This document shows, piece by piece, positions 7,161-29,338 of a stretch of DNA of 64,000 nucleotides. Location: NCBI GenBank assembly GCA_965221695.1, contig OZ244905.1, positions 2,560,001 to 2,624,000 of the forward strand. The letters run 5' to 3'. This DNA comes from Gammaproteobacteria bacterium. GTDB taxonomy: Bacteria > Pseudomonadota > Gammaproteobacteria > Eutrophobiales > Eutrophobiaceae. Below the pieces are notes generated by a model. That model was not told where the DNA came from, ran no database searches, and worked only from the letters and a program-made list of their open reading frames with translations. Every line of letters begins with the position of its first letter. Positions within the stretch are counted from its first letter, which is position 1. A program made the position numbers and the translations under genes.

Positions 7161-8558
7161 TTATATAGGATAGTGACCGGGTTCACTTTCAACCGTTATC
7201 CAGCGCAGTTCCGTAAAACTGTCAATACCTGCTTTCCCGCCGAATTTACCGTAGCCGGAAGCGCCGACTCCACCAAAGGGCATTTGCGCTTCGTCATGTA
7301 CGGTCGGACCATTGACATGACAGATACCGGATTGAATTTGCCGCGCGACCTTGAGACCTCTTGTCGCGTCTGAGGTAAACACTGAGGCGCTCAAGCCGTA
7401 TTCCGTGTCATTGGCGATACGAATGGCATCGGCTTCATCATTGGCTCGAATAATCCCTGCCACCGGACCAAAACTCTCATCAGAGTAAATATCCATGCCG
7501 GCAGTGACCCGATCAACCAGCGTTGCGGACATCAATACTGAGTCGTTTGTGCCGCCAACCAAAACAGACGCGCCTTTCGCTACGGCATCCTCAATCAGTG
7601 CGTTAACCCGCTCAACAGTCTTCATATCAACAACAGCTCCAAGCGGCGTTTTCCCTTCTCGCGGATCCCCGGCAACAAGGGTTTCCACTTTATCCCTGAG
7701 CTTTTGTACAAACTCTTCCGCCACGTCATCCACAACGATAATGCGCTCGGTTGACATGCAGATCTGCCCCTGGTTCATATAGGCGCCGAAGGCTGCGGCC
7801 TTCACAGCCTCGTCAAGATCGGCATCCTCCAGTACTACTAAGGGGGCCTTGCCGCCGAGTTCCAATAAACAGGGCTTGAGATGGGTGGCAGCGCGCTGTG
7901 CGATGATTCGGCCGACTGCAGTGGAGCCGGTAAAATTTATTCGCTTTACTGTCGGGTGATCGATGATAGCGCCGACAACTTCAGCAGCCGACTCGGGTGC
8001 ATTGGTCACAATGTTGATAGTCCCTTCCGGGAACCCCACTTCATTGCATGCATCAATGATCAGTTCATGGGTCCGCGGGCAGATTTCCGAGGCCTTGAAT
8101 ATGACGGAATTTCCACAGGCAAGAGGAGTGGCAATCGCCCTGACAGCAAGAATTATTGGCGCATTCCAGGGAGCGATACTGAGAATCACACCTACAGGTT
8201 CACGCAAGGTCATTGCCATACAACCCGGTTTGTCCGAAGGAATGACTTCACCACTAATCTGCGTGGTGATCGATGCTGCCTCTCGCAGCATGGAGGCTGA
8301 CAGCATGAGGTTAAACATAGTCCAGCCGGCAGTAGCGCCGATCTCATTTGCCATTGCCTCGAGAAACGCATCCTTTTTTTTCTCAAGCGCTTCAGCGGCT
8401 GCCATCAATAATTGGCGACGGTTATTTGGGCCCTGTTTTGACCAGGCTTGAAAACCAGACTGGGCCTTCTCACATATTGCCGGAATATCCGATGGCTGCA
8501 TCGCCACGGTTTTGCTTGCCAATTCCCCGGTAAGCGGGTTAAGACGTTCAAAATTCAT
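7161..8558 (-). CDS. vdh: NAD-dependent aromatic aldehyde dehydrogenase (vanillin/benzaldehyde dehydrogenase-like)
   Basis: PWNAP, FTGST, LELGGK, catalytic Cys in GQICMS, ESFGP; clustered with hydroxycinnamoyl-CoA hydratase-lyase and CoA ligase. Substrate inferred from context. Confidence 0.8.
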   Translation of the reverse strand: MNFERLNPLTGELASKTVAMQPSDIPAICEKAQSGFQAWSKQGPNNRRQLLMAAAEALEKKKDAFLEAMANEIGATAGWTMFNLMLSASMLREAASITTQISGEVIPSDKPGCMAMTLREPVGVILSIAPWNAPIILAVRAIATPLACGNSVIFKASEICPRTHELIIDACNEVGFPEGTINIVTNAPESAAEVVGAIIDHPTVKRINFTGSTAVGRIIAQRAATHLKPCLLELGGKAPLVVLEDADLDEAVKAAAFGAYMNQGQICMSTERIIVVDDVAEEFVQKLRDKVETLVAGDPREGKTPLGAVVDMKTVERVNALIEDAVAKGASVLVGGTNDSVLMSATLVDRVTAGMDIYSDESFGPVAGIIRANDEADAIRIANDTEYGLSASVFTSDATRGLKVARQIQSGICHVNGPTVHDEAQMPFGGVGASGYGKFGGKAGIDSFTELRWITVESEPGHYPI

Positions 8559-8603
8559 ACATTATTTCCTCTGATATTCTGTACATTGATTTTTCGCTCC
8601 GCC

Positions 8604-9704
8604 CTATACCGCCTTTTTGTACATACAATTATTATTGATGGCATCGACAACACTGCGGGTCACCTCGCTTGTTGTGGCTGTGCCACCAACATCCGGCGTC
8701 AGAATGCCGGCGCCTGTTGTTTGCTCAATAGCCGACATTAATACTTCGGCCGCTTCTGTTTGTTCAAGGTGAATGAGCATTTGTACAGCAGTCCAGAAGC
8801 TGGCAATGGGATTGGCAACCCCTTTACCGGTGATGTCAAAGGCCGCGCCGTGAATGGGTTCGAACATGGAAGGATAACGTCGTTCCGGGTCAATGTTTGC
8901 AGTAGGCGCAACGCCGAGGCTACCTCCAAGCGCGCCGGCAAGGTCCGAAAGGATATCCGCTTGCAGATTTGTGGCGACTATCGTGTCCAGGCTTGCGGGG
9001 TCCAGAGTCATTCTCACAGTCATAGCGTCAACGAGCATTTTATCCCACCTGACCTCCGGAAATTCAGTCGCTATTTCTGCCGCTATCTCGTCCCACATCA
9101 CCATACCATGTCGTTGAGCATTGGATTTGGTTACGACGGTTAGCAGTTTTCTGGGTCTCGATTTTGCCATTTGAAAAGCGTAGCGCATGATTCGGGTAAC
9201 GCCCACTCGTGTAAAAATAGCTACCTCCGTACCGATCTCCTCCCGGTGACCCCTGTGGGCACGACCACCATGACCCGAGTATTCACCTTCGCTGTTCTCC
9301 CGTATTATTACCCAGTCGAGGTCCCCTGGCTCACAGTTGCGCAGTGGTGAGGATATCCCCGGTAGCAGCCGGCTTGGTCTTACATTGGCGTACTGGTCAA
9401 ATCCCTGACAAATCTCCAGCCGTAAGCCCCATAACGTAATGTGATCGGGCACATCCGGAGCGCCTACCGCACCGAAAAGGATTGCATCGAATGGTTTTAG
9501 TATCTCCAACCCGTTCTCCGGCATCATCACGCCGTGTTTCTTGTAATAGTCCGAGCCCCAGTCGAAAGTTTCAACGTTGAATCCTATTTCAGGAAAGCAC
9601 ATTTGAATTGCCTTGAGCACTTCTATGGTTTCAGCAATCACCTCAATACCGATACCATCTGCCGGTATGGCTGCAATGTTATAAACGCATTTATTTTTAT
9701 TCAT
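8604..9704 (-). CDS. ttuC: Tartrate dehydrogenase/decarboxylase (D-malate dehydrogenase type)
   Basis: IPADGIG, PDHITLWGL, FDQYANVRP, RENSEGEY, TKSNA, SMFEPIHG; the LWG/DQY signature fits the tartrate subfamily of IDH/IPMDH enzymes. Confidence 0.85.
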   Translation of the reverse strand: MNKNKCVYNIAAIPADGIGIEVIAETIEVLKAIQMCFPEIGFNVETFDWGSDYYKKHGVMMPENGLEILKPFDAILFGAVGAPDVPDHITLWGLRLEICQGFDQYANVRPSRLLPGISSPLRNCEPGDLDWVIIRENSEGEYSGHGGRAHRGHREEIGTEVAIFTRVGVTRIMRYAFQMAKSRPRKLLTVVTKSNAQRHGMVMWDEIAAEIATEFPEVRWDKMLVDAMTVRMTLDPASLDTIVATNLQADILSDLAGALGGSLGVAPTANIDPERRYPSMFEPIHGAAFDITGKGVANPIASFWTAVQMLIHLEQTEAAEVLMSAIEQTTGAGILTPDVGGTATTSEVTRSVVDAINNNCMYKKAV

Positions 9705-9740
9705 TAGCTGTTCCTGACTTGAGAGTGTAATTGATATATT

Positions 9741-11036
9741 TCATTGCCGCTTACGCAGGTGCGCCAGAAGAAGCACCAGTAGAGATGAAAAGATCAATGC
9801 AGCGGCAACGCTGATCAACCCACTATTAAATTCTCCCGTTTGTTCTTTCATCCAGCCGATGATGAACGGACCGGCAAAACCACCCAGATTTCCAATCGAG
9901 TTAATCGTCGCAATACCGGTCGCGGCGGCCGCTCCTGTGAGAAATTGGGTGGGGATACTCCAAAGGGGTGGCTTGGCAGAGCTGACGCCGGCGCTTACCA
10001 GCGCCAGTGACAGAACCACCAGGATAAGGCTGGTGGAATACGCTGCGAGTACCAGCCCCATGGCGGCGACCAGACAGGCTCCCACTACGTGCCAGTTTCG
10101 CTCGCCGGTGCGGTCAGAATGTCTGGCCCAAAACACCATGACAAAGACCGCGAACAGCGGCGGAATTGCATTGATTATACCTGTGGCCAGGGGACCAATA
10201 CCGTACTGGGCGATAATCTGTGGAGACCAGATATTCACAGTGTAAAGCCCTGCGGAGGTACCAAAGTAAATCAGCGCCAGCGAAAGTACCCATGGGTCGA
10301 TAAGGCCGCGTAATACCGACTGGGTTTTGTGTTCATTTGCCACATTCTGTTGTTCGGCCTGCATCTTGGCAATCAACCAGTTCCGCTCTTCTTCGGTCAA
10401 CCATTGCGCCTGTTCCGGTCTATCCGTGAGGTACACAAGAACAACCCCGGCCAACAGCACTGCGGGAGCGGCTTCAACCAGAAATAACCACTGCCAACCA
10501 TGCAGGCCAAGCACGCCATCCATGGTCAGTAACGCACCGGAAATCGGCGAACCCAACGCAATTGATATCGGTACGGCCGCCATGAACAGCGCAGTCACAC
10601 CCGCGCGCTGTTGCGCAGGGAACCAGTAACTGAGATACAGAATAATTCCAGGGAAAAAACCTGCTTCTGCAGCGCCCAGCAAAAAGCGCAATATATAGAA
10701 ACTTGTAGGTCCCTGCACAAACGCCATAGCGCCGGAAATGATTCCCCAGGTGAGCATGATGCGAGCAATCCAGATGCGTGCGCCGACTCGATGCAGGATC
10801 AGGTTCGAAGGCACCTCAAACAGAAAATATCCGATAAAAAAAACACCCGCGCCAAAGCCGAAAGCGGCTGCCGACAAACCGACATCTTCGTTCATGGTCA
10901 GCGCAGCAAAGCCGACATTAACCCTGTCGAGATACGCGACAAAATAGAGCAACATGATGAAAGGCACTATTCGCCGCGTCAATTTGCGAATTACGCGCTG
11001 TTCAATCGTTGTGGTCTGTGTTGGAATTTCGGCCAA
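9741..11036 (-). CDS. ttuB: MFS transporter, ACS family (TtuB tartrate transporter-like)
   Basis: YLDRVN, FEVPSN, GARIWIARI, AEAGFFPG, INSIGNLGGF; directly upstream of tartrate dehydrogenase. Confidence 0.75.
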   Translation of the reverse strand: MAEIPTQTTTIEQRVIRKLTRRIVPFIMLLYFVAYLDRVNVGFAALTMNEDVGLSAAAFGFGAGVFFIGYFLFEVPSNLILHRVGARIWIARIMLTWGIISGAMAFVQGPTSFYILRFLLGAAEAGFFPGIILYLSYWFPAQQRAGVTALFMAAVPISIALGSPISGALLTMDGVLGLHGWQWLFLVEAAPAVLLAGVVLVYLTDRPEQAQWLTEEERNWLIAKMQAEQQNVANEHKTQSVLRGLIDPWVLSLALIYFGTSAGLYTVNIWSPQIIAQYGIGPLATGIINAIPPLFAVFVMVFWARHSDRTGERNWHVVGACLVAAMGLVLAAYSTSLILVVLSLALVSAGVSSAKPPLWSIPTQFLTGAAAATGIATINSIGNLGGFAGPFIIGWMKEQTGEFNSGLISVAAALIFSSLLVLLLAHLRKRQ

Positions 11037-11144
11037 TTTTCATTCTTCTCTGTGGTCAACCAAAACCGTTACAGTAGCCTTATTCATCGTTGACAGCACT
11101 GATTGCGATGATTATATTAATTTTATGAATTATAGGCACTCCGG

Positions 11145-12053
11145 GTGAACCTTAATCTTTTGCGGTGCTATGTTGTTGTAGCAGAGGAACTTCATTTTGG
11201 CCGTGCCGCAAGACGATTGAACATTCTCCCCTCTTCTCTCAGCAGAAATATCAACCTGCTGGAACAGGAACTGGGGCTACGCTTACTATCCCGCACGACT
11301 CGCGATGTTGCCCTGACTCAGAGCGGGCATTCACTGGCGCAGGAAGCCAAGTCTTTGCTTGAACATTCAACTGAGGTTGCCGACCGGGTCAGAAGTTCTG
11401 CCACGAGTAAAGAGCGGGTATTTCGAATTGGCGCGATGGACAGCGCCGCGATCGGCTTGATACCACAGCTTATTCATGATTTTCGTGAATTGGTGCCCGA
11501 ACTGGAATTACGCCTGCTGGAGGAGAAGAGCGCCAGGCTGTTACCGAAGCTGTTATCGGGTGCGCTTGATGTGGCAATTATCAGCCAGCCGGAATGGCCA
11601 TTTGCCGAAATTGAATCTGAGTTCCTGCTCAACCAACGCATCATTGTCGCATTACCGGCCAATCATCCACTGGCAAAACACGTCATGCTGCGTGTCGATG
11701 ACCTTGCAGACGTTCCACTGATACTACCATCACCCAGGAGCCGGCCTCATAGTCACAACCTGACCATACAGCTTTTTCAGGATGCTTCATTACAGCCTCG
11801 CATCGTCCAGCAAGCAGAAGAGAAACAGACCATAATCAACATGGTTGGCGCGGAAATCGGCGCGGCCATCGTGCCTTACTGGGCTAGTCGAAATGTGGTT
11901 CAGGGAGTGGTTTTTCGACCTTTGGTAAACCATTCAGGCAAGCCCATAGAGGAATTGCCGTTAGCGGCTGCATGGATAAAAGGAACTCATGATGTGTTCC
12001 GCGACAAGTTAATGGGTTTGCTCAGAAACAACCTGGAACGCTACTCAAATTGA
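11145..12053 (+). CDS. LysR-family transcriptional regulator
   Basis: EELHFGRAARRL HTH, LEQELG..L..RTTR; divergent from the transporter-dehydrogenase genes. Confidence 0.92.
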   Translation: MNLNLLRCYVVVAEELHFGRAARRLNILPSSLSRNINLLEQELGLRLLSRTTRDVALTQSGHSLAQEAKSLLEHSTEVADRVRSSATSKERVFRIGAMDSAAIGLIPQLIHDFRELVPELELRLLEEKSARLLPKLLSGALDVAIISQPEWPFAEIESEFLLNQRIIVALPANHPLAKHVMLRVDDLADVPLILPSPRSRPHSHNLTIQLFQDASLQPRIVQQAEEKQTIINMVGAEIGAAIVPYWASRNVVQGVVFRPLVNHSGKPIEELPLAAAWIKGTHDVFRDKLMGLLRNNLERYSN

Positions 12054-12056
12054 GCG

Positions 12057-12992
12057 CTATTCTCTGTTAATCAGATACTTGTCGAACCAACTCAGCATTG
12101 CGCCGATGTAATCGGGTGGATCGTCCGGTTCTCGCCTGACCCTGCTGCCATTAACTACCTGGCTCGCCTCGAAGCGTGGTCCATGCCCGCCACCCTGCAC
12201 CGGTAACAGTTCGGTATCAATACCGGCCTGTATAAGCGCAGCATGCATTTTGACGGAGCGATCATACGGAACAACCGGATCAGCATCTCCATGTATCAGA
12301 AGGAAGGGCGGATCGTCGGGCGTAACATAAGTAATCGGCGAAGCTTCTGCGAGCAATTGAGATTCGACACTTCCCTTTTTTGCTGCATTTGTTCGAAAAC
12401 CGAACAATGGCGCATCAGGGTTGTCGCGGAGATCCATAGGCGCTGCGCGTGTTACCACAACTTGCACTTTTGCGCTTTCGCGGTTTATCTCGTTGGGATC
12501 AGTCGGGTCGCCGTCACCATCCATGACGCCAAGCATACTGACCAGGTGTGCGCCTGAGGAGCCTCCCATCGCGCCGATACGCGTCGGGACAATTCCGAAC
12601 TTTTCCGCATTGTAGCGGATATAACGGACTGCTCTTTGAACATCCTCGAGTGGCGCAGGGTAGCGAAAACGCGGCGCGGCCCTATGATTGATATTAAATA
12701 CCGTATAGCCGGCTTGCGCCAGCGGTTGTGCGTAGATCTTCTCCTGACCGGTTTGTGTAAGCGGAATTGCATCAAGGCTTAGTTCGCGGGTCCAGCCGCT
12801 TCCAGAGATAAAAATGATGCCATAGCCATTGGGTTTCTCCGGGTAATAGACATCCATCAGCAATGCAAGGCCAGAGTACATTCCGTAGATGACATTGGAA
12901 TCAACCCTGGTTTCGGCGCTTGCCAGTCCCGGTTTGCCCAGGCAAGCCAGCGCAAAAATAATGAGGCAAACATGTGAATTTGGTAATTTCAT
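12057..12992 (-). CDS. Exported alpha/beta-hydrolase esterase (BD-FAE/feruloyl-esterase-like)
   Basis: Signal peptide, GGSSGAHL nucleophile motif, HGDADPVVP, GGGHG; GGAG RBS before ATG 12992. Confidence 0.8.
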   Translation of the reverse strand: MKLPNSHVCLIIFALACLGKPGLASAETRVDSNVIYGMYSGLALLMDVYYPEKPNGYGIIFISGSGWTRELSLDAIPLTQTGQEKIYAQPLAQAGYTVFNINHRAAPRFRYPAPLEDVQRAVRYIRYNAEKFGIVPTRIGAMGGSSGAHLVSMLGVMDGDGDPTDPNEINRESAKVQVVVTRAAPMDLRDNPDAPLFGFRTNAAKKGSVESQLLAEASPITYVTPDDPPFLLIHGDADPVVPYDRSVKMHAALIQAGIDTELLPVQGGGHGPRFEASQVVNGSRVRREPDDPPDYIGAMLSWFDKYLINRE

Positions 12993-13207
12993 ATCGCTCC
13001 TGGAATATGCGAATCTTAGCGGACGACGGTAGTGGAACAATTGTTGCATTTTTTTGTATAAAGTTCAGTATCGGAAGGTGCCTGCTTTTCTGAAATACAC
13101 TGAGTTTCACTTGTGGGGCTGTCTGCTGCTGACAATCGGGATATTCATTGAATATGCCACGCCTTCGGTTCGAACCAACCCTACTAACAGTGACTCGGGG
13201 GACTATA

Positions 13208-16090
13208 ATGAAACAACAACCTACTGCATCAATGCCTACCATCGCCCGCACTTTTTTGATGGTATTGTTCGGATACGTAATTACCCTGTCGGGTAACCTG
13301 GTAATAGCCCAGGACCAGGAAGGGGAAACCCTGGAGGAAATTGTTGTCACCGGTTCACGCATTGCCCGTAGTGACTTTGTATCGCCCAGCCCCTTGGTAA
13401 CTACTGAAATGGAATCGATCGTCTATTCCGGCCGATCAACGATTGATGACTATCTGAAGGACCTTCCTCAATTCGCTCCAGGGAGTGGTGACTACAGTAA
13501 TGACAGTAATGGTGGAACCGCAGGTCGTGCGACGTTGAACTTGAGAAACCTCGGAGCAAAACGCAACCTTGTTCTCATGAACGGGCGCCGTCTGATATCT
13601 TCAGGAACTGACGGCGCCATTGATATCAACACGATTCCATCACTTGCGATTGGAAAAATCGAGGTTATCACGGGTGGGGCCTCAGCGACTTATGGTTCTG
13701 ACGCCCTGTCCGGTGTCGTGAATTTCAAGACCCGTACAGACCTGGACGGCCTGGACTTCCAGGCCCAGTACTCTGTCTTGGATGGCGCCGGTCAGGACAA
13801 CTACAAAATCGGTGCGGCCTACGGAACAGACTACGCTAACGGCAGGGGCAACCTTCTGATTTCAGCAGAATTTACCGACCGTGGCGGTGTTCGCTACTTC
13901 GAACGAGATTTCTTCAATGTAAATCCTCAAGCAAGTCAGTTCACGGCGTATGGGTCTTCCCGTTTGTTACCTCGCGGTCAATTGATCTCGGCCAATAACG
14001 ACGGTACGGCATTCAACGCGAGTAATACTTCTTCACCTACAGGCGCTGGCGGGACAACTTTCAACGGAATTACCGAGCTTCCATTGCTGATTGACAGCCG
14101 AGGAACACTCAGAACCCATGGCCAGTTCAGAAACTGGATACAGGTACCGCTGGAACAAACAAACGTGTTCGGTACGACCGACTTTGAGTTTGATAATGGT
14201 ATTACGGCTTACGGACAGTTCCTGTACGCGTCTTCAACGGCTTTTAACGTCGGCGCAGAGCCAATTTCAGCAGGAATTTGGGGCATAAGGATACCCCAAG
14301 ACAACTTTTATCTGAATCAGGTTCCGGACATTGCCGGGTTAGTCGGCCCTGCTGGAATCAACGACTACCAGATTCGTTTTGTACAAGCCGGAAACCGGGT
14401 CTACGAGACTGACAACGATGTATACCAGGTTCTTGGCGGACTGAGCGGAAGCTTTGGAGAGCACGACTATAACTGGGATATTCACTTCTCTTACGGTAGA
14501 ACAGAAACATCTGACAGAACAATTTCCGGTTCCGTGAATTTCGCAGCCGTTCAGGACGTTATTGATACAACGGATGCGGCGACCGGCGTTAGCCCTCTTT
14601 GTGCGGGCGGCTTTAATCCATTCGGAGGAAGCGCCCCGCTGTCTGCCGAGTGTCTGGAATTCGTTTCTCGTACACCTGTGAACGATACGACTCTGGAACA
14701 GATCATCGTCGAAGCCACGTTAGAAGGAAGGCTTGCTGATATGCCGGCTGGCGAAGCCCGTTTTGCCTTGACCGCATCATACCGTGAAAATACCTATGAG
14801 TTTGATCCTGACGCTGATATAGCTGCAGGGGAGTTGGCAAACCTGGCGAGCGCCGGGTTCACGAAAGGAGAAATAGATGTTGTCGATATTTCAGGTGAGG
14901 TTCTGCTGCCACTCATTTCCGACGCTGAGATGCTCGATTCCATGAACCTGACGATGGGCGCGCGTTATTCGGATTATAGCCCTGCGGGTTCGCAGGAAAC
15001 CTATAAGGCTGAAGTTGATGCGCGAGTGAACAGCAACTTCATGTTGCGCGGTGGCTTCCAACATGCTGTTCGAGCGCCCAATGTTGAGGAATTCTTCAGG
15101 GCCAGTCTTTTGCGAGTTCAACCTTTCCTTGATCCCTGCAGCTCTCGATATAGAGGTGTAAGTGTGGACCGAGCTGCTGAATTAGCGCTTTGCGCGCTTC
15201 AAGGCGCTGACCGTAGCTATACTCAACCCGGTTCATCGGCGCCAACTTTCACAAACGGCAACCCCGACCTGACCCCTGAAGAAGCCGATACTTTTACCAT
15301 TGGCGCAGTCTTTGATTTTGACCTTGGCAATCTTGGCGCTCAGATTACCGTCGATTACTACCACATCAAGATTGACAATGCCATTGAGACCTTGTCAGCA
15401 CAGCAGATCATGACCAAGTGTTTCAACCTGGATGGCACATCCAATCCGACTTATGACAATAACTATTTCCCATGCCAGCAAATCAACCGTCCGGTTCTGG
15501 CGCCTGCGACAACCGCGTTTGATCTTGATCCGGTTAATCAACCGATCCTGAACCTGGGTGGAATTAAAACATCCGGCATCGACATATCGGCAAATTTCAA
15601 TCTTCCGGTGGAGAAGCTGGTCTGGGGCAACGGTGGCGGCGGCATTTACTTCTCGTCATACGTTAACATTCTTGATAAGCATAAAATTCAGGCTTTCCCA
15701 GACGAAGACTTTGCCGACTTTGCCGGACTTGTCGACCTGACCGTAGCTTACCCTGAATTAAGGCTGACCAACTCCCTGACTGTGGAAACAGGCCCTGTAA
15801 CACTCACCGGGGTGTGGCGTCATATTTCAGACATGGATGACATTTCAGCAGTCGGAGGCGCCGCTACCACCATCGAAGGCGCGGATTCGTATGACTACTT
15901 TGATTTGATTGCACGCGTAAATGTTAATGATAAGTTTGAAATCTATGGGGGTATCAACAACATCAGTAACAAGCAGCCACCTCAACTTGGTGGTGAACCG
16001 GTCGGCACCGTATTCTCGAATACCAACCAGGGATATTACGACGGCATTGGCCGTTCATTCTACCTTGGTGTGAATGCCGGTTTCTTCTAA
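13208..16090 (+). CDS. TonB-dependent outer-membrane receptor
   Basis: EEIVVTGSRI TonB box, plug motifs (NLRNLG...LMNGRR, GASATYGSDA), C-terminal Phe. Confidence 0.93.
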   Translation: MKQQPTASMPTIARTFLMVLFGYVITLSGNLVIAQDQEGETLEEIVVTGSRIARSDFVSPSPLVTTEMESIVYSGRSTIDDYLKDLPQFAPGSGDYSNDSNGGTAGRATLNLRNLGAKRNLVLMNGRRLISSGTDGAIDINTIPSLAIGKIEVITGGASATYGSDALSGVVNFKTRTDLDGLDFQAQYSVLDGAGQDNYKIGAAYGTDYANGRGNLLISAEFTDRGGVRYFERDFFNVNPQASQFTAYGSSRLLPRGQLISANNDGTAFNASNTSSPTGAGGTTFNGITELPLLIDSRGTLRTHGQFRNWIQVPLEQTNVFGTTDFEFDNGITAYGQFLYASSTAFNVGAEPISAGIWGIRIPQDNFYLNQVPDIAGLVGPAGINDYQIRFVQAGNRVYETDNDVYQVLGGLSGSFGEHDYNWDIHFSYGRTETSDRTISGSVNFAAVQDVIDTTDAATGVSPLCAGGFNPFGGSAPLSAECLEFVSRTPVNDTTLEQIIVEATLEGRLADMPAGEARFALTASYRENTYEFDPDADIAAGELANLASAGFTKGEIDVVDISGEVLLPLISDAEMLDSMNLTMGARYSDYSPAGSQETYKAEVDARVNSNFMLRGGFQHAVRAPNVEEFFRASLLRVQPFLDPCSSRYRGVSVDRAAELALCALQGADRSYTQPGSSAPTFTNGNPDLTPEEADTFTIGAVFDFDLGNLGAQITVDYYHIKIDNAIETLSAQQIMTKCFNLDGTSNPTYDNNYFPCQQINRPVLAPATTAFDLDPVNQPILNLGGIKTSGIDISANFNLPVEKLVWGNGGGGIYFSSYVNILDKHKIQAFPDEDFADFAGLVDLTVAYPELRLTNSLTVETGPVTLTGVWRHISDMDDISAVGGAATTIEGADSYDYFDLIARVNVNDKFEIYGGINNISNKQPPQLGGEPVGTVFSNTNQGYYDGIGRSFYLGVNAGFF

Positions 16091-16152
16091 AGAAGCTCTG
16101 CACGCCACGATTGCATATAACTGTTGGCACAGACCAGGACATTACCCCATAG

Positions 16153-16180
16153 CACTCCCGCAATAGCGGGAGTCCGGTCA
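16153..16180. repeat. REP family A single arm
   Basis: CACTCCCGCAATAGCGGGAGTCCGGT, the reverse complement of the family-A arm ACTGGACTCCCGC...GCGGGAGTGG. Confidence 0.7.
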
Positions 16181-16184
16181 AATA

Positions 16185-16709
16185 ATGAAAATTATTCCGC
16201 TTATTTTCTCTCTACTGATTGTTATTTCGCTTCCATGCTTAGCCAATAAAGATCAAGAATCCATCTTTGAGCAATACCCGTCCAAACCGCCCGGCGTCGG
16301 CGCTGAGCCAGTGCTTCAGCTATACGTCACCTTGACTGCTTCGATTGATGTGGGGCAGACAGACGATGGGCAACGCTATATCGTTCCAATTACCGGCGGT
16401 TATTTTACAGGAAACGGAATTTCCGGGGAGGTGCTGCCCGGTGGGGCAGACTGGCAGGTCGTGCGCGCCGACGGAATAAAGAAAATTATCGCCTTGTATT
16501 CGATCAGAACATCTGATGGGGAAGTCATCATAGTGGACAACCAGGGTATCAGTTACACGGATGATGACGGGCGCTACAGACGAACCATTCCAAAATTTCA
16601 TGCCCCCAAGGGAAAGTATGACTGGCTGAACAAAAGCCTGTTTGTCGGAACAATTACGTCCATAAAACAACCGCGTGCGGTTATTATTAGAGTATACGAA
16701 GTGAAATGA
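16185..16709 (+). CDS. Exported DUF3237 (UPF0311) family protein
   Basis: IVPITGG.F.G..ISGEVLPGGADWQ, Y.RT.PKF.AP.GKYDWLN..LFVG; signal peptide. Confidence 0.85.
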   Translation: MKIIPLIFSLLIVISLPCLANKDQESIFEQYPSKPPGVGAEPVLQLYVTLTASIDVGQTDDGQRYIVPITGGYFTGNGISGEVLPGGADWQVVRADGIKKIIALYSIRTSDGEVIIVDNQGISYTDDDGRYRRTIPKFHAPKGKYDWLNKSLFVGTITSIKQPRAVIIRVYEVK

Positions 16710-16799
16710 GCGGGTCCCACGGCGACGCAGCGTTTGATCTTTGCTGCGCCAGAGACTTTTATCATTGGCGGCACGTTACAAACTGGAGGATTTATCTGT

Positions 16800-17639
16800 A
16801 TGAGCGCTGAAAGAAAAGAAGAAGATACGGTTGCATACGAGATTGAGAACCAGATTGCCTGGGTCAGGTTCAATCGCCCCGAAAAGCGTAACTGCATGAG
16901 TCCCAAACTGAATCGACAGATGATGCGCGTTCTTAAAGATATCGAGTTTCGAGAGGATGTTGGCGTGCTGGTCCTGACCGGTGAGGGAACAGCATGGTCT
17001 GCGGGCATGGATTTGAAAGAATACTTCCGCGAAACCGAGGCACAAGGTCTTGGCGCTATCCGGGAAGCCCAGAGCGAAGCCTATGGCTGGTGGCGCAAGC
17101 TGCGTTGGTACCAGAAACCTACGATAGCAATGGTTAATGGTTGGTGTTTCGGCGGTGGTTACGGCCCGCTCCATGCCTGTGATTTGGCATTTGCCGCAGA
17201 AGACGCGCAGTTCGGCCTTAGCGAAATAAATTGGGGCATCCTGCCCGGCGGTGGGGCAACCAAGGTTGCCACCAATTTGCTGAATATGCGGAATGCGATG
17301 TATCACGCCCTGATGGGAGAGAACATTGATGGCAAAACTGCTGCGGCATGGGGATTGGTAAACGAGGCGGTTCCTCAGGCAGCACTGAAAAGCCGTGTTA
17401 TTGAAGTGGCTGAGACTTTGCTGGAAAAGAACCCCGTGGCGCTGAAGGCAACCAAGGATGCAATTCGCCGGGTGATGGAAATGACTTATGACAATGCTGA
17501 GGATTTCCTGATTCGAGCACAGGAATCCGCAAACTTTTTTGATAATCAGGGTCGCAAAGCGGGAATTAAGCAATTTATAGATGAAAAGACCTACAAGCCG
17601 GGTCTGGGAGCATACGACAAGTCTAAACAGGCTGACTGA
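16800..17639 (+). CDS. ech: p-Hydroxycinnamoyl-CoA hydratase/lyase
   Basis: NRPEKRNCMSP, WSAGMDLKEYFRE, GWCFGG, LSEINWGI.PGG, FIDEKTYKPGLG match HCHL; GGAGGA RBS. Confidence 0.92.
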   Translation: MSAERKEEDTVAYEIENQIAWVRFNRPEKRNCMSPKLNRQMMRVLKDIEFREDVGVLVLTGEGTAWSAGMDLKEYFRETEAQGLGAIREAQSEAYGWWRKLRWYQKPTIAMVNGWCFGGGYGPLHACDLAFAAEDAQFGLSEINWGILPGGGATKVATNLLNMRNAMYHALMGENIDGKTAAAWGLVNEAVPQAALKSRVIEVAETLLEKNPVALKATKDAIRRVMEMTYDNAEDFLIRAQESANFFDNQGRKAGIKQFIDEKTYKPGLGAYDKSKQAD

Positions 17640-17654
17640 GGACGATCCGCGGAA

Positions 17655-19121
17655 ATGGATTATGTAGCGCTACATGCGCGTTTTCGGCCAGACAAGCTGG
17701 CGGTTTCCGACTTGGCACACAAGCGTCACTGGACCTACTCACAGTTTGATCAATGCATCGCCCGCTGCGTAACAGCGCTTCAAACGAGCGAAATAGCGGC
17801 AGGAGACAGGGTAGCCGCTCTTTCGAAAAACAGGGCGGAGCTGATTACTCTCCACCTGGCCTGCGCGCGCATGGGCGCTATATTTGTTCCCTTGAACTGG
17901 CGGCTCTCTCCTGCGGAAATTAGTCACCTTATTGATGACTGTATGCCGACCCTGCTGATGGGTGACAGCATGGCGGGAAGCGTTGGTGTTGATTACCAGC
18001 CTATCGAAGAATTATTTGAGCGCTGCGATAGCTGCGAGCCAGCTTTTCCACCTGCGGTATCGGCGGACCTGCCATCTTTGATTCTTTATACTTCGGGTAC
18101 CACCGGTAAGCCCAAGGGTGTCATGCTCAGTGAGCGTAACATTACGGAGACCGCTATCAACTTTTCGATATTGGGAGATGTGGAAAGTCAGAGCGGGTTT
18201 CTTTGTGAATCGCCCATGTTTCACATAGTAGGATTGATCACATCAGTTCGACCACCATTTCTGCGAGGTGGGCATGTTGTCATTTCGGATGGTTTTGTTC
18301 CTGAACGCACGCTGAGCCGGTTGTCAGACCCGGAGCTTAACATCAGCCACTTTTTCTGTGTTCCGCAGATGGCTCGTGCCTTACGCAGAGAGGATAGTTT
18401 TGATCCTGAAAAATTACGTCACCTTAAAGCAATTTTTACAGGTGGCGCGCCACATCCGGAGGCACAAATCCGCGAGTGGTTGAACGATGGTATCGCGCTT
18501 GTTGACGGGTACGGCAGCTCAGAAGCAGGCACTGTTTTTGGCATGCCCCTGGACAGAACCATCATTGACTCGAAAGCAGGTTCTGTTGGTGTGCCGACAC
18601 CGCGTATCGGTCATCGACTTGTGGACAACAATGGAAATACAGTTCCTGACGGTATTGAAGGCGAATTGCAGTTGCGGGGAGACAATGTCACTGCCGGTTA
18701 CTGGCAGCGGGAAAATGATTACTCGGAATATTTTACCGACGACGGCTGGTTCCTTACCGGTGATATCCTGATGATCGACGAAGATGGTTTCTATCGAGTT
18801 ATTGATCGAAAAAAGGATATGTATATATCCGGCGGTGAAAATATCTATCCCGCCGAAATTGAAGCGCTTCTGGCCAAATTTCCTGGTGTGACGGAAATAA
18901 CAGTAGCGGGTGTTCCTGACAAAAAGTGGGGGGATGTCGGTTGTATTTTTTACGTCACAGATTCGGCAACTGTTACGATTGAAGAGTTTTCTGATTTTCT
19001 CAGCGGAAAACTTGCCCGCTACAAGTTACCACGCAAAGCGCTGAAGCTGGAAAAAATACCCAGGAACAGCGCAGGAAAAATTCTGAAGCACGCACTTAAA
19101 GAAATGTTCATAGGCCAGTGA
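17655..19121 (+). CDS. fcs: Acyl-CoA synthetase, probable feruloyl/hydroxycinnamoyl-CoA ligase
   Basis: YTSGTTGKPKG, GYGSSE, TGD, DRKKDMYISGGENIYP; adjacent to HCHL. Confidence 0.8.
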   Translation: MDYVALHARFRPDKLAVSDLAHKRHWTYSQFDQCIARCVTALQTSEIAAGDRVAALSKNRAELITLHLACARMGAIFVPLNWRLSPAEISHLIDDCMPTLLMGDSMAGSVGVDYQPIEELFERCDSCEPAFPPAVSADLPSLILYTSGTTGKPKGVMLSERNITETAINFSILGDVESQSGFLCESPMFHIVGLITSVRPPFLRGGHVVISDGFVPERTLSRLSDPELNISHFFCVPQMARALRREDSFDPEKLRHLKAIFTGGAPHPEAQIREWLNDGIALVDGYGSSEAGTVFGMPLDRTIIDSKAGSVGVPTPRIGHRLVDNNGNTVPDGIEGELQLRGDNVTAGYWQRENDYSEYFTDDGWFLTGDILMIDEDGFYRVIDRKKDMYISGGENIYPAEIEALLAKFPGVTEITVAGVPDKKWGDVGCIFYVTDSATVTIEEFSDFLSGKLARYKLPRKALKLEKIPRNSAGKILKHALKEMFIGQ

Positions 19122-19122
19122 T

Positions 19123-20424
19123 ATGAGAAATAACCCTCAGCAGATTCTGGATGAAATGCCCATGGGGCGACTACAGGTCGCCGCCGTTTGCATTTGCGTA
19201 TTGCTTAACGGCCTGGACGGTTTTGATGTCCTGGCAATCAGTTTCGCTGCGCCAGGTATCGCCGCGGAATGGGGGATCAACCGCGCTGCGCTGGGTGTCG
19301 TACTGTCGATGGAGTTGATAGGCATGTCCATAGGATCTATTTTTCTGGGCGGAGTTGCGGACCGCTTTGGCCGCCGACCGATGATTCTGCTTTGCCTGGT
19401 ATTGATGACAGCGGGTATGTTTCTGGCAGCACAAGCGGGAGATGTCGTCACATTGTCACTGATTCGTCTTGTCACAGGTCTAGGAATAGGCGGTATGCTT
19501 GCCTCGACCAACGCCATGGTAGCGGAATATTCCAATGCCAGGCGACGTGACTTTTGCATTGCAGTGATGGTAGCCGGATATCCGTTGGGAGTAATAATCG
19601 GAGGTACCTTCGCTTCGATGCTGTTGGCATATTTTGACTGGCGATCGGTGTTCCTGCTCGGGGCAGTAGGAACAGCGGCCATGTTCCCGGTAGTGTGGCT
19701 ATTTTTACCCGAGTCAATTGCTCACCTGGTACATAAACGGGGACCGGGGGCATTGGAAAAGATAAACGCCACATTAAAACGCATGGGGCACGGTATTATT
19801 GATGCATTGCCGGAACTTGCAGAAGAAGGTCCCAAAGCCAGTTGGCGGGACCTGTTTTCGCCCGGCCTGGTCCGTATTACCCTGTTACTCACCCTGTGTT
19901 ACCTGACGCATATCATGACCTTTTACTTCATTTTAAAATGGGTGCCCAAGATAGTCGTAGATATGGGCTTTGCTGCCTCAGCAGCCGGTGGCGTACTGGT
20001 CTGGGCGAGCGTAGGCGGCGCCGCTGGTTCGTATCTGTTCGGGTGGTTAACACATTATTTTCGGCTGCGAAGATTGGTCATATTTGCGATGGCAGGTTCA
20101 GTGATAATGGTCAACATCTTCGGACAAGGTCAGTCCGACCTGACAACATTGGCTGCAGTCGCTTGCCTGGCAGGAATATTTACCAATTCCGCAATTGTCG
20201 GCCTGTATGCCTTGTTTGCCCGATTGTTTCCAACGCATTTACGCGCAGGGGGCACTGGTTTTGTTATAGGTGTTGGTCGCGCCGGCGCCGTTCTTGGCCC
20301 GATAATAGCAGGCATCCTTTTTGAAAGCGGCGAGGGACTGGCTGGGGTTGCATTCATCATGGCGTTGGGTTCTCTCGTTGCCGCAATCCTGCTAACGATG
20401 TTGCGCGATCCCGATCCATCTTGA
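19123..20424 (+). CDS. MFS aromatic acid:H+ symporter family transporter
   Basis: LDGFD in TM1, ADRFGRR, GLGIGG, FP..LRAGGTG...GVGR. Confidence 0.85.
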   Translation: MRNNPQQILDEMPMGRLQVAAVCICVLLNGLDGFDVLAISFAAPGIAAEWGINRAALGVVLSMELIGMSIGSIFLGGVADRFGRRPMILLCLVLMTAGMFLAAQAGDVVTLSLIRLVTGLGIGGMLASTNAMVAEYSNARRRDFCIAVMVAGYPLGVIIGGTFASMLLAYFDWRSVFLLGAVGTAAMFPVVWLFLPESIAHLVHKRGPGALEKINATLKRMGHGIIDALPELAEEGPKASWRDLFSPGLVRITLLLTLCYLTHIMTFYFILKWVPKIVVDMGFAASAAGGVLVWASVGGAAGSYLFGWLTHYFRLRRLVIFAMAGSVIMVNIFGQGQSDLTTLAAVACLAGIFTNSAIVGLYALFARLFPTHLRAGGTGFVIGVGRAGAVLGPIIAGILFESGEGLAGVAFIMALGSLVAAILLTMLRDPDPS

Positions 20425-20657: not shown

Positions 20658-21605
20658 ATGTATTTTACAAAAAACGTAATAAGAGCATTAAGACCTTCGC
20701 TTATTATTGTCTTGCTGGCCCTGGTGGCCGGTTGTAACACGACGCCCGTAAGCCGGACATCCGGTGCGCCGGGCGCGCCAGGGTCGCCTGGATCGCCCGG
20801 GCCATCAGGCTCCCCCGGCTCAACCGGTTCTTCCGGCCCATCCATACAGGTGGAGGCGCCGGGCATGCCCGGTGTGCCTGGCGTACCGGGCGTGCCGGGG
20901 CTGCCCACAACCGGTTCGGGTGATGGTGGGGGCGCCTCCGCTCCTGTTACGGTCTCCATACCAACGCCGTCGACCGGCGCCCCGCCCGCAAGCGCCGGCA
21001 CAGGTCAGCCCACGACGCAGACCGGCGCAGCACAACAACCGGCCGGCTCTACACCCAGCGTCGGCGGCCAGGGCAAGAGCGACGATCAAATCCTGGCGGA
21101 AGCCTTGGAGGAACTCAATAAACGGCCCGGCGCGGGGCAACCGGGCGAGAGCGCTGCCGGGCAAACGCCACAGGCTGGTGGCGGCAATCCGGCAACTACC
21201 GATGCCGAGAAGAAGCAATCCCTGGGCAAGGAACTGGAACAGGGTTTTGCCGAATTCGACGAGCTGATGCTGAACGAAAAGCAGGCAAACAGGCAGCGCG
21301 CGGACCAGGAGGGCTTCGCGGACTTCCCCGAGGATGATGACCTGCTTGCCGGGAACGATCCGGCGCAAGGCGGCGCTGAAGGGCCCTTGCAGACCGCAAT
21401 GGTGGATTCCGACCCCGCATCCATCAAGGGCGATATGAATATCCCGACACGCAGCCACAGCCAGGTCCCGCCTGATCTGGCGGATGCCAAGGATGACGAT
21501 ATTATTGCGCGCCAATTGCGCGAGGCCGCGATGAAAGAACAGGATCCCGAGCTAAGGGAAAAGCTCTGGGACGAATATCGCAAGTACAAGCGAGATTTAA
21601 GATGA
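20658..21605 (+). CDS. Lipoprotein with Gly/Pro-rich linker and charged C-terminal domain
   Basis: Lipobox LVAGC, PGx repeats, C-terminal DDDIIARQLREAA...LWDEYRKYK. Confidence 0.75.
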   Translation: MYFTKNVIRALRPSLIIVLLALVAGCNTTPVSRTSGAPGAPGSPGSPGPSGSPGSTGSSGPSIQVEAPGMPGVPGVPGVPGLPTTGSGDGGGASAPVTVSIPTPSTGAPPASAGTGQPTTQTGAAQQPAGSTPSVGGQGKSDDQILAEALEELNKRPGAGQPGESAAGQTPQAGGGNPATTDAEKKQSLGKELEQGFAEFDELMLNEKQANRQRADQEGFADFPEDDDLLAGNDPAQGGAEGPLQTAMVDSDPASIKGDMNIPTRSHSQVPPDLADAKDDDIIARQLREAAMKEQDPELREKLWDEYRKYKRDLR

Positions 21606-22804
21606 AAACAAGTCATTTCAAACTGGCAGCGACCGTTGTATTGGCATGTTTCAGCCTGGTTGCATGCAACACGACCACGGTAAAGACAACCAGTTACGAG
21701 GAAGTGGCGATCGAAGCCGAGACGACGCCGGAAGAATTATTGCTGGATGTGGGGATCGGCATCTTCAACCCTGGTACTGACACGTTAAGCGTTGAGGAAG
21801 AGGGTGTGTTTCCGAAGATTCGCGAGGCAGAGGCGCGTTTCATGCCGTACAAACTGATGGAGACACTGCAGCATACCGGCAACTGGGGCGTGGTGCGGGT
21901 GATTCCGGACCGCCTCAGCGAAATGGATCTGTGGGTTGACGGGGAAATCCTGAAGTCTGACGGGGAAAACCTGTGGCTGCAAATTACCGTGGAAGACGCG
22001 ACGGGAAAACGCTGGTTCAGCAAGAAATATACAGGGGTGGCCGGGAAGTACTCGTATGACGATACGACTTCCAATGACCGCGAACCGTTCCAGAGGGTCT
22101 ACAACCAGATAGCTAACGATTTGCTGGGTTATCGCAGCCTGTATGACGCGGCTGAGATCCGGAACATGCGTACCGTTGCAGAGTTGAAGTTTGCCCGGGA
22201 TTTCTCTCCGCAGGTGTTCCACGATTACCTGGCGTTGGATGACAAGGGACGCTATGTGGTGAAACGCCTGCCCGCCGCAGATGACCCGAGCCTGCAACAG
22301 GTTCGCCAGATCCGGGAGCGGGACTACATCTTCGTCGACACGTTGCAGCAGTATTACGCCTCGTTCGTCGACCAGATGGAGGAGCCGTACCGGGAATGGC
22401 GCGAGGCATTCTACCTGGAAAGCCAGGCATTAAAGGAGGTCAGGTCGGAAGCGAACACCCGACTGGTCGGCGGCGCGCTGGCCGTGCTGGCCGGCATCCT
22501 GGCCCAGGGCGTTGACAGCCGGACGGCAAATACTGCCGGTTGGGTCGGTATCGGCGCCGGCGCGGCCGCGATCCAGAGCGGATTGCAAAAGCGTGAAGAG
22601 GCCAAGATCCATGTGGAAGCGCTGGAAGAGGTGTCCGCTTCCCTGGATTCGGAGATAGAACCCCATTCCATAGACCTGGAGGACCGCACGGTTACTCTAT
22701 CGGGTTCGGTAAATGAACAATACGGTCAATGGCGACGGATTTTGCAGGAAATTCATGCTACGGAAACCGGACAGCCATTGATTCCGGCAAATGACGGGTC
22801 CTGA
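21602..22804 (+). CDS. Uncharacterised lipoprotein
   Basis: Lipobox LVAC; ATGA overlap with the upstream stop; glycine-zipper-like segment near the C-terminus. Confidence 0.75.
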   Translation: MKTSHFKLAATVVLACFSLVACNTTTVKTTSYEEVAIEAETTPEELLLDVGIGIFNPGTDTLSVEEEGVFPKIREAEARFMPYKLMETLQHTGNWGVVRVIPDRLSEMDLWVDGEILKSDGENLWLQITVEDATGKRWFSKKYTGVAGKYSYDDTTSNDREPFQRVYNQIANDLLGYRSLYDAAEIRNMRTVAELKFARDFSPQVFHDYLALDDKGRYVVKRLPAADDPSLQQVRQIRERDYIFVDTLQQYYASFVDQMEEPYREWREAFYLESQALKEVRSEANTRLVGGALAVLAGILAQGVDSRTANTAGWVGIGAGAAAIQSGLQKREEAKIHVEALEEVSASLDSEIEPHSIDLEDRTVTLSGSVNEQYGQWRRILQEIHATETGQPLIPANDGS

Positions 22805-24341: not shown

Positions 24342-24477
24342 ACAACATGCTTGAACCTGCGCGCAAGCTCAAACACGAAGCTTTTGGCTTTCACCAAGCG
24401 CTGCTCGACACTACGCTGGGAGCGCGGGTGCCACCAGCTTGGGATCGCCCGATGTATCTGCCAGTCTGATTGAAGCC

Positions 24478-27875: not shown

Positions 27876-27923
27876 GGTTTTGATGTCTGATCAATATTAG
27901 AATACGATGTATGGCAGTTTCGG

Positions 27924-28229
27924 TTACACCACCTCGGCATGGCCATGCAGCGCACGCAACGCATGCTCCGGGTCTGCGTACAGAATCCTCAGCAACGCTC
28001 GGGCTGGACCGGCTGGCTTTCTGCGACCCTGCTCCCAGTTTTCCAAGGTACGCTTGCTGACACCAAGCAGTGCAGCAAAATGCTTCTGACTCAGACCGGT
28101 CTTCTCGCGAATCTGCCTTACCTCCGGTTCGGAAAACCGGGTGACCCTGCCAGGTGGCAACTCGCCCCCGACTATCCGGTCCATCTCGTGCATGCTTTCC
28201 AGCAATTCATTGAACAGTTCTTTTTTCAT
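27924..28229 (-). CDS. XRE-family HTH protein (NadS/HigA-type antitoxin)
   Basis: ELFNELLESM N-terminus, IREKTGLSQKHFAALLGVSKRTLENWEQGRRKP.GPARALL. Confidence 0.85.
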   Translation of the reverse strand: MKKELFNELLESMHEMDRIVGGELPPGRVTRFSEPEVRQIREKTGLSQKHFAALLGVSKRTLENWEQGRRKPAGPARALLRILYADPEHALRALHGHAEVV

Positions 28230-28240
28230 CTGACCACCCC

Positions 28241-28269
28241 CTTATACGCCTATGGCGTACCAAAGTCAA
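28241..28269 (-). promoter_or_regulatory. Sigma70-like promoter with overlapping palindromic operator
   Basis: Minus strand TTGACT-N17-TATAAG; palindrome TACGCC-TAT-GGCGTA at 28245-28259 overlaps the spacer and -10. Confidence 0.65.
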
Positions 28270-28270
28270 A

Positions 28271-28408
28271 TATTTTCTGTGTAGATTTTACTGACTAACC
28301 TGCGCCCCGTACCATTCCCGCGCAAGCGGGAATCCAGTAGACAAAGGGTCGCCCTGCGGGCGACACAGTATTACACTGGACTCCCGCTTTCGCGGGAGTG
28401 GTACGGAG
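28271..28408. repeat. REP family A full element (dRS3-like arms)
   Basis: Leader, ACCATTCCC-N8-GGGAATCCAGT, central GTCGCCC/GGGCGAC hairpin, inverted arm ACTGGACTCCCGCTTTCGCGGGAGTGGT. Confidence 0.85.
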
Positions 28409-29300: not shown

Positions 29301-29315
29301 AAAGGTTACCTCCCT

Positions 29316-29338
29316 GTGGGCGAGACACCCGCGCCCCC
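29316..29338. repeat. REP family B arm
   Basis: GTGGGCGAGACACCCGCGCCCCC, related to 37038-37092. Confidence 0.6.

Follow-up and report, generated by a model that had tools for sequence, protein, structure and literature searches.

We analysed a 64,000-nucleotide stretch of a gammaproteobacterial genome (assembly GCA_965221695.1, contig OZ244905.1, positions 2,560,001 to 2,624,000), referred to below as the window, with its source called "this genome". Positions 7161-20424 of the window hold a block of ten genes which, at a probability that we put at roughly one half, may be a horizontally mobile utilisation locus for hydroxycinnamoyl-tartrate esters (caftaric, coutaric, fertaric and chicoric acids). 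The block, or island, joins a tartrate-utilisation unit to genes for hydroxycinnamate catabolism and to an exported esterase, a TonB-dependent receptor and an exported DUF3237 protein. Gene families, export signals, operon-like spacing, homology and synteny with the tartrate operon of the grapevine pathogen Agrobacterium (Allorhizobium) vitis, mobility of the block and recurrence of the esterase together with the tartrate unit were all read directly from the sequence.

Genes were called as open reading frames (ORFs) of the window, and families were assigned by Pfam and NCBIfam profile searches against the cut-offs of the models. All ten genes named in the original prediction were found at 7161-20424 (13.3 kb), and its description of an AT-richer block was borne out: GC content is 0.48-0.54 over 8-20 kb of the window, compared with 0.59-0.64 at 1-6 kb and 0.58-0.62 at 21-26 kb, or about 50% between flanks of about 60%. 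A row on the minus strand consists of a major facilitator superfamily (MFS) transporter (9741-11036), a tartrate dehydrogenase/decarboxylase homologue (8604-9704) and an aromatic aldehyde dehydrogenase (ALDH, 7161-8558). The gene of a LysR-type regulator (11145-12053, plus strand) diverges from this row. On the plus strand the receptor (13148-16090, probable start near 13209), the DUF3237 protein (16185-16709), p-hydroxycinnamoyl-CoA hydratase/lyase (HCHL, or Ech; 16734-17639), an AMP-forming acyl-CoA ligase (17655-19121) and an aromatic acid MFS transporter (19123-20424) form a second row, in which successive genes are 94, 24, 15 and 1 nt apart. The esterase gene (12057-12992, minus strand, in an ORF extending to 13049) diverges from the receptor-headed row, as had been predicted, and its 3' end lies 4 nt from the end of the LysR gene on the opposite strand. 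Every predicted gene was thus present, and two gene starts were amended, since the esterase probably begins at 12992 and the receptor near 13209. According to Pfam annotation the LysR gene is the sole regulator gene of the island, here and in the two further arrangements of the island described below.

The tartrate half is a clear syntenic homologue of the ttuA, ttuB and ttuC genes of the A. vitis tartrate-utilisation operon. Its ttuC-like dehydrogenase (TTC) exceeds the equivalog cut-off of TIGR02089 (554.4 versus 470.4 bits) and matches the solved tartrate dehydrogenase/decarboxylase of P. putida (PDB 3flk) with 350 bits. The ttuB-like transporter, a putative tartrate importer of the ACS family (PF07690), stays below the cut-offs of the HpaX and D-galactonate subfamilies, and the ttuA-like regulator matches PF00126 and PF03466. 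A protein search of a plasmid collection with the window MFS identified two loci in which the order of the LysR, MFS and dehydrogenase genes is identical to that of the window. In the annotated A. vitis locus (plasmid NZ_AP023271.1) the LysR gene diverges from genes for the MFS, tartrate dehydrogenase, glycerate kinase and pyruvate kinase, and identities to the window proteins are 50% for LysR (full coverage), 68.5% for the MFS (93% of length) and 77.4% for the dehydrogenase. In the locus on a Paracoccus plasmid the LysR gene diverges from genes for the MFS, tartrate dehydrogenase and glycerate kinase, with identities of 42% (LysR), 69% (MFS) and 74% (dehydrogenase). The A. vitis identities and gene order confirm the predicted tartrate-type transporter and dehydrogenase divergent from a LysR gene. 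The names ttuB, ttuD and ttuE, together with a mutational analysis of the ttu genes, are said to come from the work of Crouzet and Otten in 1995. Plasmid-borne TAR regions of A. vitis are described as carrying ttuA (LysR-like) and ttuC (tartrate dehydrogenase) and are tied to the use of L-tartrate (PMC9219206). The ttu unit of the window looks imported: among 400 sampled and scored genomes of the class, the best dehydrogenase outside the island is only 70% identical.

Genes of the tartrate dehydrogenase family with 44-47% identity and in-frame stops inside the match were also seen in three genomes of the same order as this one (G008:C4:366120-367181, G086:C110:6413-7465 and G050:C20:1609-2670). 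These may be broken genes or may reflect alignment run-over.

The aromatic half reads as a CoA-dependent side-chain cleavage pathway, and the HCHL, acyl-CoA ligase, aromatic MFS and aromatic ALDH families named in the original prediction are all present. The HCHL is well above the equivalog cut-off (NF006588, 457.1 versus 276 bits); it matches feruloyl-CoA hydratase/lyase (PDB 7xwc) with 446 bits and the HCHL of P. fluorescens (2j5i) with 291 bits. The ligase (PF00501, PF13193), a candidate Fcs-like hydroxycinnamate-CoA ligase, scores 663 bits with NF006572, just under the cut-off of 696, and this is a generic acyl-CoA synthetase model. Its best solved relatives, a fatty-acyl-CoA synthase (8weu, 288.4 bits) and a feruloyl-CoA synthetase (8wev, 288.3 bits), are essentially tied. 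The gene for the aromatic MFS, a putative hydroxycinnamate importer of the aromatic acid:H+ symporter (AAHS) family, begins 1 nt past the ligase stop; the protein scores 347.7 bits with TIGR00895 (cut-off 418.6) and about 205 bits with the PcaK and MhpT models. The ALDH (PF00171, 484 bits) is of the vanillin/salicylaldehyde dehydrogenase type, with 776 bits and about 75% identity to salicylaldehyde dehydrogenase (6qhn) and 745 bits and about 71% identity to vanillin dehydrogenase (9ihb). Its gene is separated from the dehydrogenase gene by 45 bp without a terminator-like site, and such a site follows it at 7013-6999 on the minus strand. Elsewhere this genome encodes PobA above its cut-off (573 bits) and five LigB-family matches, which make a route from benzoates to central metabolism plausible; a beta subunit of protocatechuate 3,4-dioxygenase was not found above cut-off in this genome.

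The esterase belongs to the BD-FAE family (PF20434, 148.5 bits, cut-off 26.8). Its start was placed at the second Met (12992) because a signal-peptide-like N-terminus begins there with GGAG just upstream, and with this start the protein is exported, in agreement with the original prediction. Residues Ser145, Asp238 and His270 (numbering of the 311-aa form) are invariant in 42 aligned homologues. The family is large (3023 proteins at E<=1e-30, with about 65 clusters at 64-77% identity) and the solved relatives of the window protein are distant (95-117 bits), namely the metagenomic esterase 6nkf, the acetyl xylan esterase 6xyc and the GH43-CE protein 6mly. Only the genomic context points to the predicted feruloyl/hydroxycinnamoyl esterase activity. 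BD-FAE is named for a bifunctional feruloyl and acetyl xylan esterase (PMC8165983), and hydrolysis of caftaric and chicoric acids by esterases of lactic acid bacteria is in print (PMC6857119; Bel-Rhlid 2012). The plasmid collection gave no match to the esterase at E<=1e-30.

The receptor belongs with the aromatic genes, as it heads the row that continues with DUF3237, HCHL, ligase and MFS. It has plug (PF07715, 56 bits) and 22-strand barrel (PF00593, 79.7 bits) domains and reached no substrate-specific NCBIfam model. The possibility that receptor and esterase serve iron or catechol uptake, with catechol-bearing conjugates as iron carriers and the place beside catabolic genes incidental, is highly improbable: the weak NCBIfam matches of the receptor are indeed to siderophore, B12 and haem receptors, but they are confined to the plug region and far below the cut-offs, the receptor gene leads a catabolic row, and Pfam annotation of the window gave no iron-regulation or siderophore genes in the island. 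The DUF3237 protein (PF11578, 107 bits) has a signal peptide, and its solved relatives are all uncharacterised UPF0311 proteins. Overall, a receptor-headed row with a divergent gene for an exported esterase points to a conjugate that would be imported and then hydrolysed outside the cytoplasm.

DUF3237 genes were also viewed in their surroundings on sphingomonad plasmids, and one case stood out. On plasmid p1 of Novosphingobium sp. ES2-1 (locus L140, 6009-10309) an alpha/beta hydrolase gene lies directly upstream of a DUF3237 gene, the product of which is 45% identical to that of the window, and a TonB-dependent receptor gene is 0.7 kb away; no island orthologues are present there. Based on this arrangement, the theme of hydrolase, DUF3237 and receptor may be wider than the island.

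Among 40 relatives, orthologues of the dehydrogenase (94-95% identity) and HCHL (94%) about 8 kb apart were found only in genomes G007, G016 and G022. The corresponding loci (L004, L002 and L001, respectively) carry the whole block, from dehydrogenase through aromatic MFS, at 85-96% protein identity to the window. Housekeeping proteins of this genome and of the other hosts show identities of 59-61% (AddB-like), 55% (CsiV), 68% (ThiL), 71% (RibD), 79% (DUF815), 84% (NrdR) and 89% (SHMT). The flanks of the island in the other hosts differ from those in the window, with ThiL, RibD, NrdR and GlyA on one side; in this genome that housekeeping block is about 1.5 Mb from the island. Since the island proteins are well above most housekeeping identities and the flanks differ, the block has evidently moved between lineages as one piece. 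At E<=1e-60 the esterase was detected in 4 of 126 genomes of the order, the same four that have a dehydrogenase orthologue (94% or more) and an HCHL orthologue, and in 1 of 400 genomes of the class sample, which is this genome itself. Inspection of the window revealed no tRNA and, at the island borders, no convincing flanking direct or inverted repeats.

The search for further linked loci showed that the esterase occurs within 6 kb of the LysR-MFS-dehydrogenase unit in three differently ordered architectures, designated variants A, B and C. Variant A has the order of the window and was found in this genome, in L001, L002 and L004 and in a metagenome contig, L058, which may share its source organism with L002. 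Of these five copies, three are in metagenome-assembled genomes (MAGs; Gammaproteobacteria bacterium). The identity of the receptor is 91-92% in variant A loci.

Variant B is represented by locus L003 from the genome of an uncultured Pseudohongiella sp. (G524) and by a short metagenome contig, L059, which ends before reaching the region of the ttu unit. Its order begins with receptor and DUF3237, followed by CoA-transferase III and a MaoC-like protein, which diverge from the esterase. After the esterase come a CitE-like lyase, an acyl-CoA dehydrogenase and an AAHS-type MFS, then LysR divergent from MFS and dehydrogenase, and finally an enoyl-CoA hydratase and an FAD monooxygenase. Identities of L003 to the window are 68% (receptor), 59% (DUF3237), 72% (esterase), 60% (LysR), 69.5% (MFS) and 70% (dehydrogenase), and in variants A and B alike DUF3237 is always directly behind the receptor. 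The L003 genome was taken to lie outside the order of this genome, because the search of the order gave no TTC at about 70% identity and the SHMT of the L003 genome is only 72% identical to that of G022. Within the family of L003 the esterase was found in 2 of 151 genomes, L003's own and G673 (56% identity, without the island partners).

Variant C is known from L065, part of the 108-kb metagenome contig LXNI01000086.1, where identities are 67% (esterase), 76% (HCHL), 78% (dehydrogenase), 81% (MFS) and 72% (LysR). Here an AAHS-type MFS (52%) and an ALDH (45%) precede the esterase; on the other strand lie the ligase (43%) and HCHL, then two unrelated genes, the dehydrogenase, the MFS and the divergent LysR gene. 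Upstream of the esterase, at 232-8284 of L065, there is a row typical of aromatic side-chain or ring-substituent catabolism: a DUF35/ChsH2-type OB protein, a thiolase-like protein, GST, CoA-transferase III, a CMD-family protein and an Amidohydro_2 protein.

A metagenome scan with the esterase gave 80 loci. In 77 of these the esterase has no more than 64% identity (26 being at least 8 kb long and 35 shorter than 4 kb), and none of the 77 holds a ttu or HCHL orthologue. The neighbours of these distant esterases are heterogeneous, with no recurrent partner.

The island contains two divergent control regions. The first (11037-11144), between ttuA and ttuB, has a lysR promoter with 11 of 12 consensus matches (TTGACA-17-TATATT, 11090-11118, plus strand), which overlaps an AT-rich box beside the lysR start. 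This box is conserved in all six ttuA-B intergenic regions aligned (window, L001, L003, L065, A. vitis and Paracoccus). The second, between esterase and receptor (12993-13208), has a conserved non-coding block of about 50 nt at approximately 13030-13100, which is kept in the window, L001, L004 and L003 and in part upstream of the L065 esterase. When a matrix was built from five ttuA-B boxes, a site resembling the ttuA box was found at 13049 on the plus strand; it takes 7th place among the hits in the window, and its counterparts take 6th place in L003 and 4th in L065. AT-rich intergenic DNA scores well with such a matrix anyway, and the sites upstream of the receptor are homologous to each other; the site is suggestive only, and a common operator for the two control regions was accordingly counted as a lead and nothing further. 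Joint regulation of the rows would fall to the single LysR regulator.

From the gene content we infer the substrate and the compartment of each step, as follows. The anionic ester would cross the outer membrane through the TonB-dependent receptor and be cleaved in the periplasm by the exported BD-FAE-type serine esterase, presumably assisted by the exported DUF3237 protein. Both halves would thus derive from one ester. Tartrate would enter through the TtuB-like MFS and be oxidised by the TtuC-like tartrate dehydrogenase, and the products would pass to glycerate and to a GlxK-type kinase encoded elsewhere; such a kinase gene is present in this genome beside genes for an aminotransferase and a short-chain dehydrogenase. 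The hydroxycinnamate would be taken up by the AAHS-type MFS and converted by the ligase to its CoA thioester, which HCHL would cut to acetyl-CoA and a benzaldehyde. In this genome the ALDH encoded behind ttuC would oxidise the benzaldehyde to a benzoate, for degradation by PobA and LigB-type dioxygenases encoded elsewhere.

The original prediction had proposed the same entry of an ester through the receptor, periplasmic cleavage and separate use of the two halves. In its favour are the gene identities, the structure of the rows, the synteny with A. vitis and the recurrence of the esterase with the ttu unit. What found no support is the view that a vdh gene behind ttuC ties the halves together. 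An ALDH in this position is unique to the island copy of this genome, and no ALDH orthologue was found at E<=1e-80 in any of the other four island-bearing genomes (G007, G016, G022 and G524). The predicted recurrence of linkage was found for esterase and ttu unit, in three architectures, and failed for HCHL and ligase in variant B; it is also confined to a narrow clade.

These failures are part of a larger set of observations that weigh against the hydroxycinnamoyl-tartrate reading. The tartrate branch is incomplete in the island, where ttuD and ttuE are missing; the glycerate kinase of A. vitis had no match at E<=1e-10 in five of five genomes, and no tartronate-semialdehyde reductase was detected above cut-off in this genome. 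With a regulator of its own the ttu unit is complete in itself, and in other bacteria it is a mobile trait carried on plasmids. Eighteen gammaproteobacterial loci centred on the dehydrogenase, from the order and class samples, include none with an orthologue of the esterase, receptor, DUF3237, HCHL, LysR or MFS. Family membership of the esterase implies only a carboxylesterase, the best solved relatives being acetyl and xylan esterases at low identity, and the conserved block ahead of the receptor cannot be clearly equated with the box of the ttuA-B region. Variant B has no HCHL or ligase orthologue, and the best solved relative of its MaoC protein is itaconyl-CoA hydratase (217 bits), so that its acyl partner may not be a hydroxycinnamate. 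Finally, the linked loci are few, with a narrow esterase clade (67% identity or more) in few marine gammaproteobacteria, and may descend from one ancestral island, in which case they are not fully independent.

One alternative is that two independent modules lie side by side on one mobile island, a ttuABC unit for free tartrate and a unit for hydroxycinnamate conjugates (receptor, esterase, HCHL, ligase and MFS) acting on another ester, such as feruloylated oligosaccharides, alkyl or glyceryl hydroxycinnamates or chlorogenate. Linkage would then reflect shared descent and co-transfer, and one ancestral island could account for all linked loci. As a set of regulator, transporter and enzyme the ttu unit is complete, and it stands alone on the A. 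vitis and Paracoccus plasmids; relatives within BD-FAE act on xylan esters, judging from PDB names and from what is described in PMC8165983; many further catabolic genes make mosaics of variants B and C; and the two control regions have no obvious common operator. We nevertheless consider this account rather doubtful. Esterase and ttu unit have stayed paired in three different arrangements, with protein identities of about 70%, whereas the genes of the acyl side have been swapped. There is no second regulator for the receptor and esterase rows, and Pfam annotation of the window revealed no glycoside hydrolase, quinate or other alcohol-moiety genes in the island.

Variant B bears on another alternative, in which the core (receptor, DUF3237, esterase and ttuABC) serves acyl-tartrates or substituted tartrate or malate conjugates generally and the acyl partner varies: a hydroxycinnamate in variants A and C, and a C5-dicarboxylate-like or dihydro-phenylpropanoid acid in B. 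It may also be that D-malate or a substituted tartrate, and not tartrate itself, is the substrate of the dehydrogenase. Members of the tartrate dehydrogenase family, including that of P. putida, also use D-malate and meso-tartrate, and the name of the PDB entry is tartrate dehydrogenase/decarboxylase. Variant B keeps the core together with CoA-transferase III, the MaoC-like hydratase, the CitE-like lyase (152 bits to CLYBL, and 152-138 bits over CLYBL and malyl-CoA lyases) and acyl-CoA dehydrogenase. The MaoC/CitE pair could be a true C5-dicarboxylate module, or it could replace HCHL functionally, with a hydratase and a retro-aldol lyase acting in turn on a phenylpropanoid-CoA. Its score does not reach the itaconate equivalog cut-off (RipC, 162 versus 375). 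The genes alongside, for an AAHS-type MFS (385 bits) and for an FAD monooxygenase of aromatic type, lean towards the second possibility without deciding between the two. These points, and the 77% identity and synteny with the A. vitis ttu genes, which favour tartrate itself, make a general function of this kind unlikely. The cou genes of Rhodococcus, described as specifying a beta-oxidative route that ends with an amidohydrolase (PMC4737184), were weighed as a possible template for variant B, without a decision either way.

To return to hydroxycinnamoyl-tartrate esters, the three architectures suggest, tentatively, a broader picture: a conserved and horizontally traded "acyl-tartrate" core for uptake and cleavage (esterase, TonB receptor, DUF3237 and ttuABC) in marine gammaproteobacteria, including sponge-type MAGs, with interchangeable acyl modules, either HCHL with ligase or a hydratase-lyase set of the MaoC/CitE type. 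If such a core exists, it would be the first dedicated bacterial locus for the chicoric and caftaric acids of seagrasses, and DUF3237 would be newly recognised as a partner, in the periplasm, of phenolic uptake through a receptor.

Seagrasses, grape, chicory and Echinacea have chicoric and caftaric acids among their major soluble phenolics. In Posidonia oceanica, chicoric acid is reported as a main phenolic, and other seagrasses also contain it (PMC9262712, PMC3982519); phenolics of this kind are said to restrain the microbial use of sugars in Posidonia sediments (PMC9262712). An ecological fit of the island with seagrass chicoric acid is reasonable. Should the hydroxycinnamoyl-tartrate reading be correct, the island would be a gene marker for organisms that remove these phenolics in marine plant habitats, its esterase would be of practical use for freeing caffeic acid from tartrate esters, and the locus would be a worked example of a plasmid-type tartrate unit recruited for ester utilisation. 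Should it be wrong, the island would be a mosaic of the ordinary sort, put together from two catabolic modules already known. The original prediction knew of no described gene cluster for such esters, and a full-text literature search, with most subscription journals outside it, likewise found no paper in which either caftaric or chicoric acid is treated together with any of tartrate dehydrogenase, HCHL, feruloyl-CoA synthetase and uptake by TonB-dependent receptors.

The remainder of the window was also inspected. To the left of the island (4-6127) an AddAB-like pair is encoded. One member is a UvrD-type helicase of 1162 aa; the other, a PD-(D/E)XK "probable DNA repair protein" with 810 bits to TIGR03623, is only 59-61% identical in congeners. 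To the right (20658-26550) lie four ORFs: one of 315 aa that matches collagen repeats weakly, one of 400 aa that belongs to no family, one of 516 aa for a TPR protein, and one of 703 aa whose product combines PEGA repeats with an FGE-sulfatase domain. A second stretch of low GC content (0.48-0.51) at 26688-30786 contains an AAA-ATPase gene and three ORFs (216-246 aa) without a Pfam match, and may be another acquired island, perhaps a defence system. The lowest GC content of the window (0.44-0.49) is at 50825-55212, where a T5orf172/MUG113 protein, three ORFs without a Pfam match and an AAA_14/DUF4143 ATPase are encoded; this looks like mobile or defence DNA.

Comparison with known systems was made for each part of the island and for its overall logic. 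The window esterase shares the BD-FAE domain and an invariant Ser-Asp-His triad with the feruloyl/acetyl xylan esterases, although solved BD-FAE-type proteins are distant from it. Neither the feruloyl/acetyl xylan esterases nor the cinnamoyl esterases of lactic acid bacteria are known to have been linked to tartrate catabolism, to a receptor or to a locus of their own. With the CoA-dependent, non-beta-oxidative Fcs-Ech-Vdh pathway of Pseudomonas, Sphingobium and Amycolatopsis the island has in common an HCHL above the equivalog cut-off, an ALDH close to vanillin dehydrogenase and a ligase whose relatives include feruloyl-CoA synthetase, essentially tied with the fatty-acyl-CoA synthase. It differs in that the ALDH is in the tartrate row (in this genome only), there is no MarR-type regulator, and the pathway genes are co-linear with those of a TonB receptor and a DUF3237 protein.

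The TAR/ttuABCDE system of A. vitis has the same LysR gene divergent from the MFS and tartrate dehydrogenase genes, and the AT-rich box between ttuA and ttuB is common to both. TAR regions, as described in PMC9219206, and the window island are both accessory, mobile traits. The A. vitis operon has ttuD (glycerate kinase) and ttuE (pyruvate kinase), whereas in the window the aromatic ALDH gene occupies that position; the A. vitis locus is without esterase, receptor and hydroxycinnamate genes, whereas the ttu unit of the window is joined to all three.

Closest in logic, on a comparison of gene content, is the hca-qui region of Acinetobacter baylyi ADP1. We take the hca cluster to include an outer-membrane porin and the esterase HcaG. 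The ADP1 genes for chlorogenate and hydroxycinnamates are reported to lie with those for quinate and protocatechuate (PMC2265553), and the regulator of the hca cluster is described as the MarR-type HcaR (PMC5487221). The logic is the same, in that genes for an ester and for both of its halves are kept together: in the window the esterase, HCHL, ligase, ALDH and ttuBC genes all lie within 13.3 kb. The alcohol half is quinate in ADP1 and would be tartrate in the window, the regulator is MarR-type in the former and LysR-type in the latter, and the block of the window, which is compact and mobile, also includes a TonB receptor with DUF3237.

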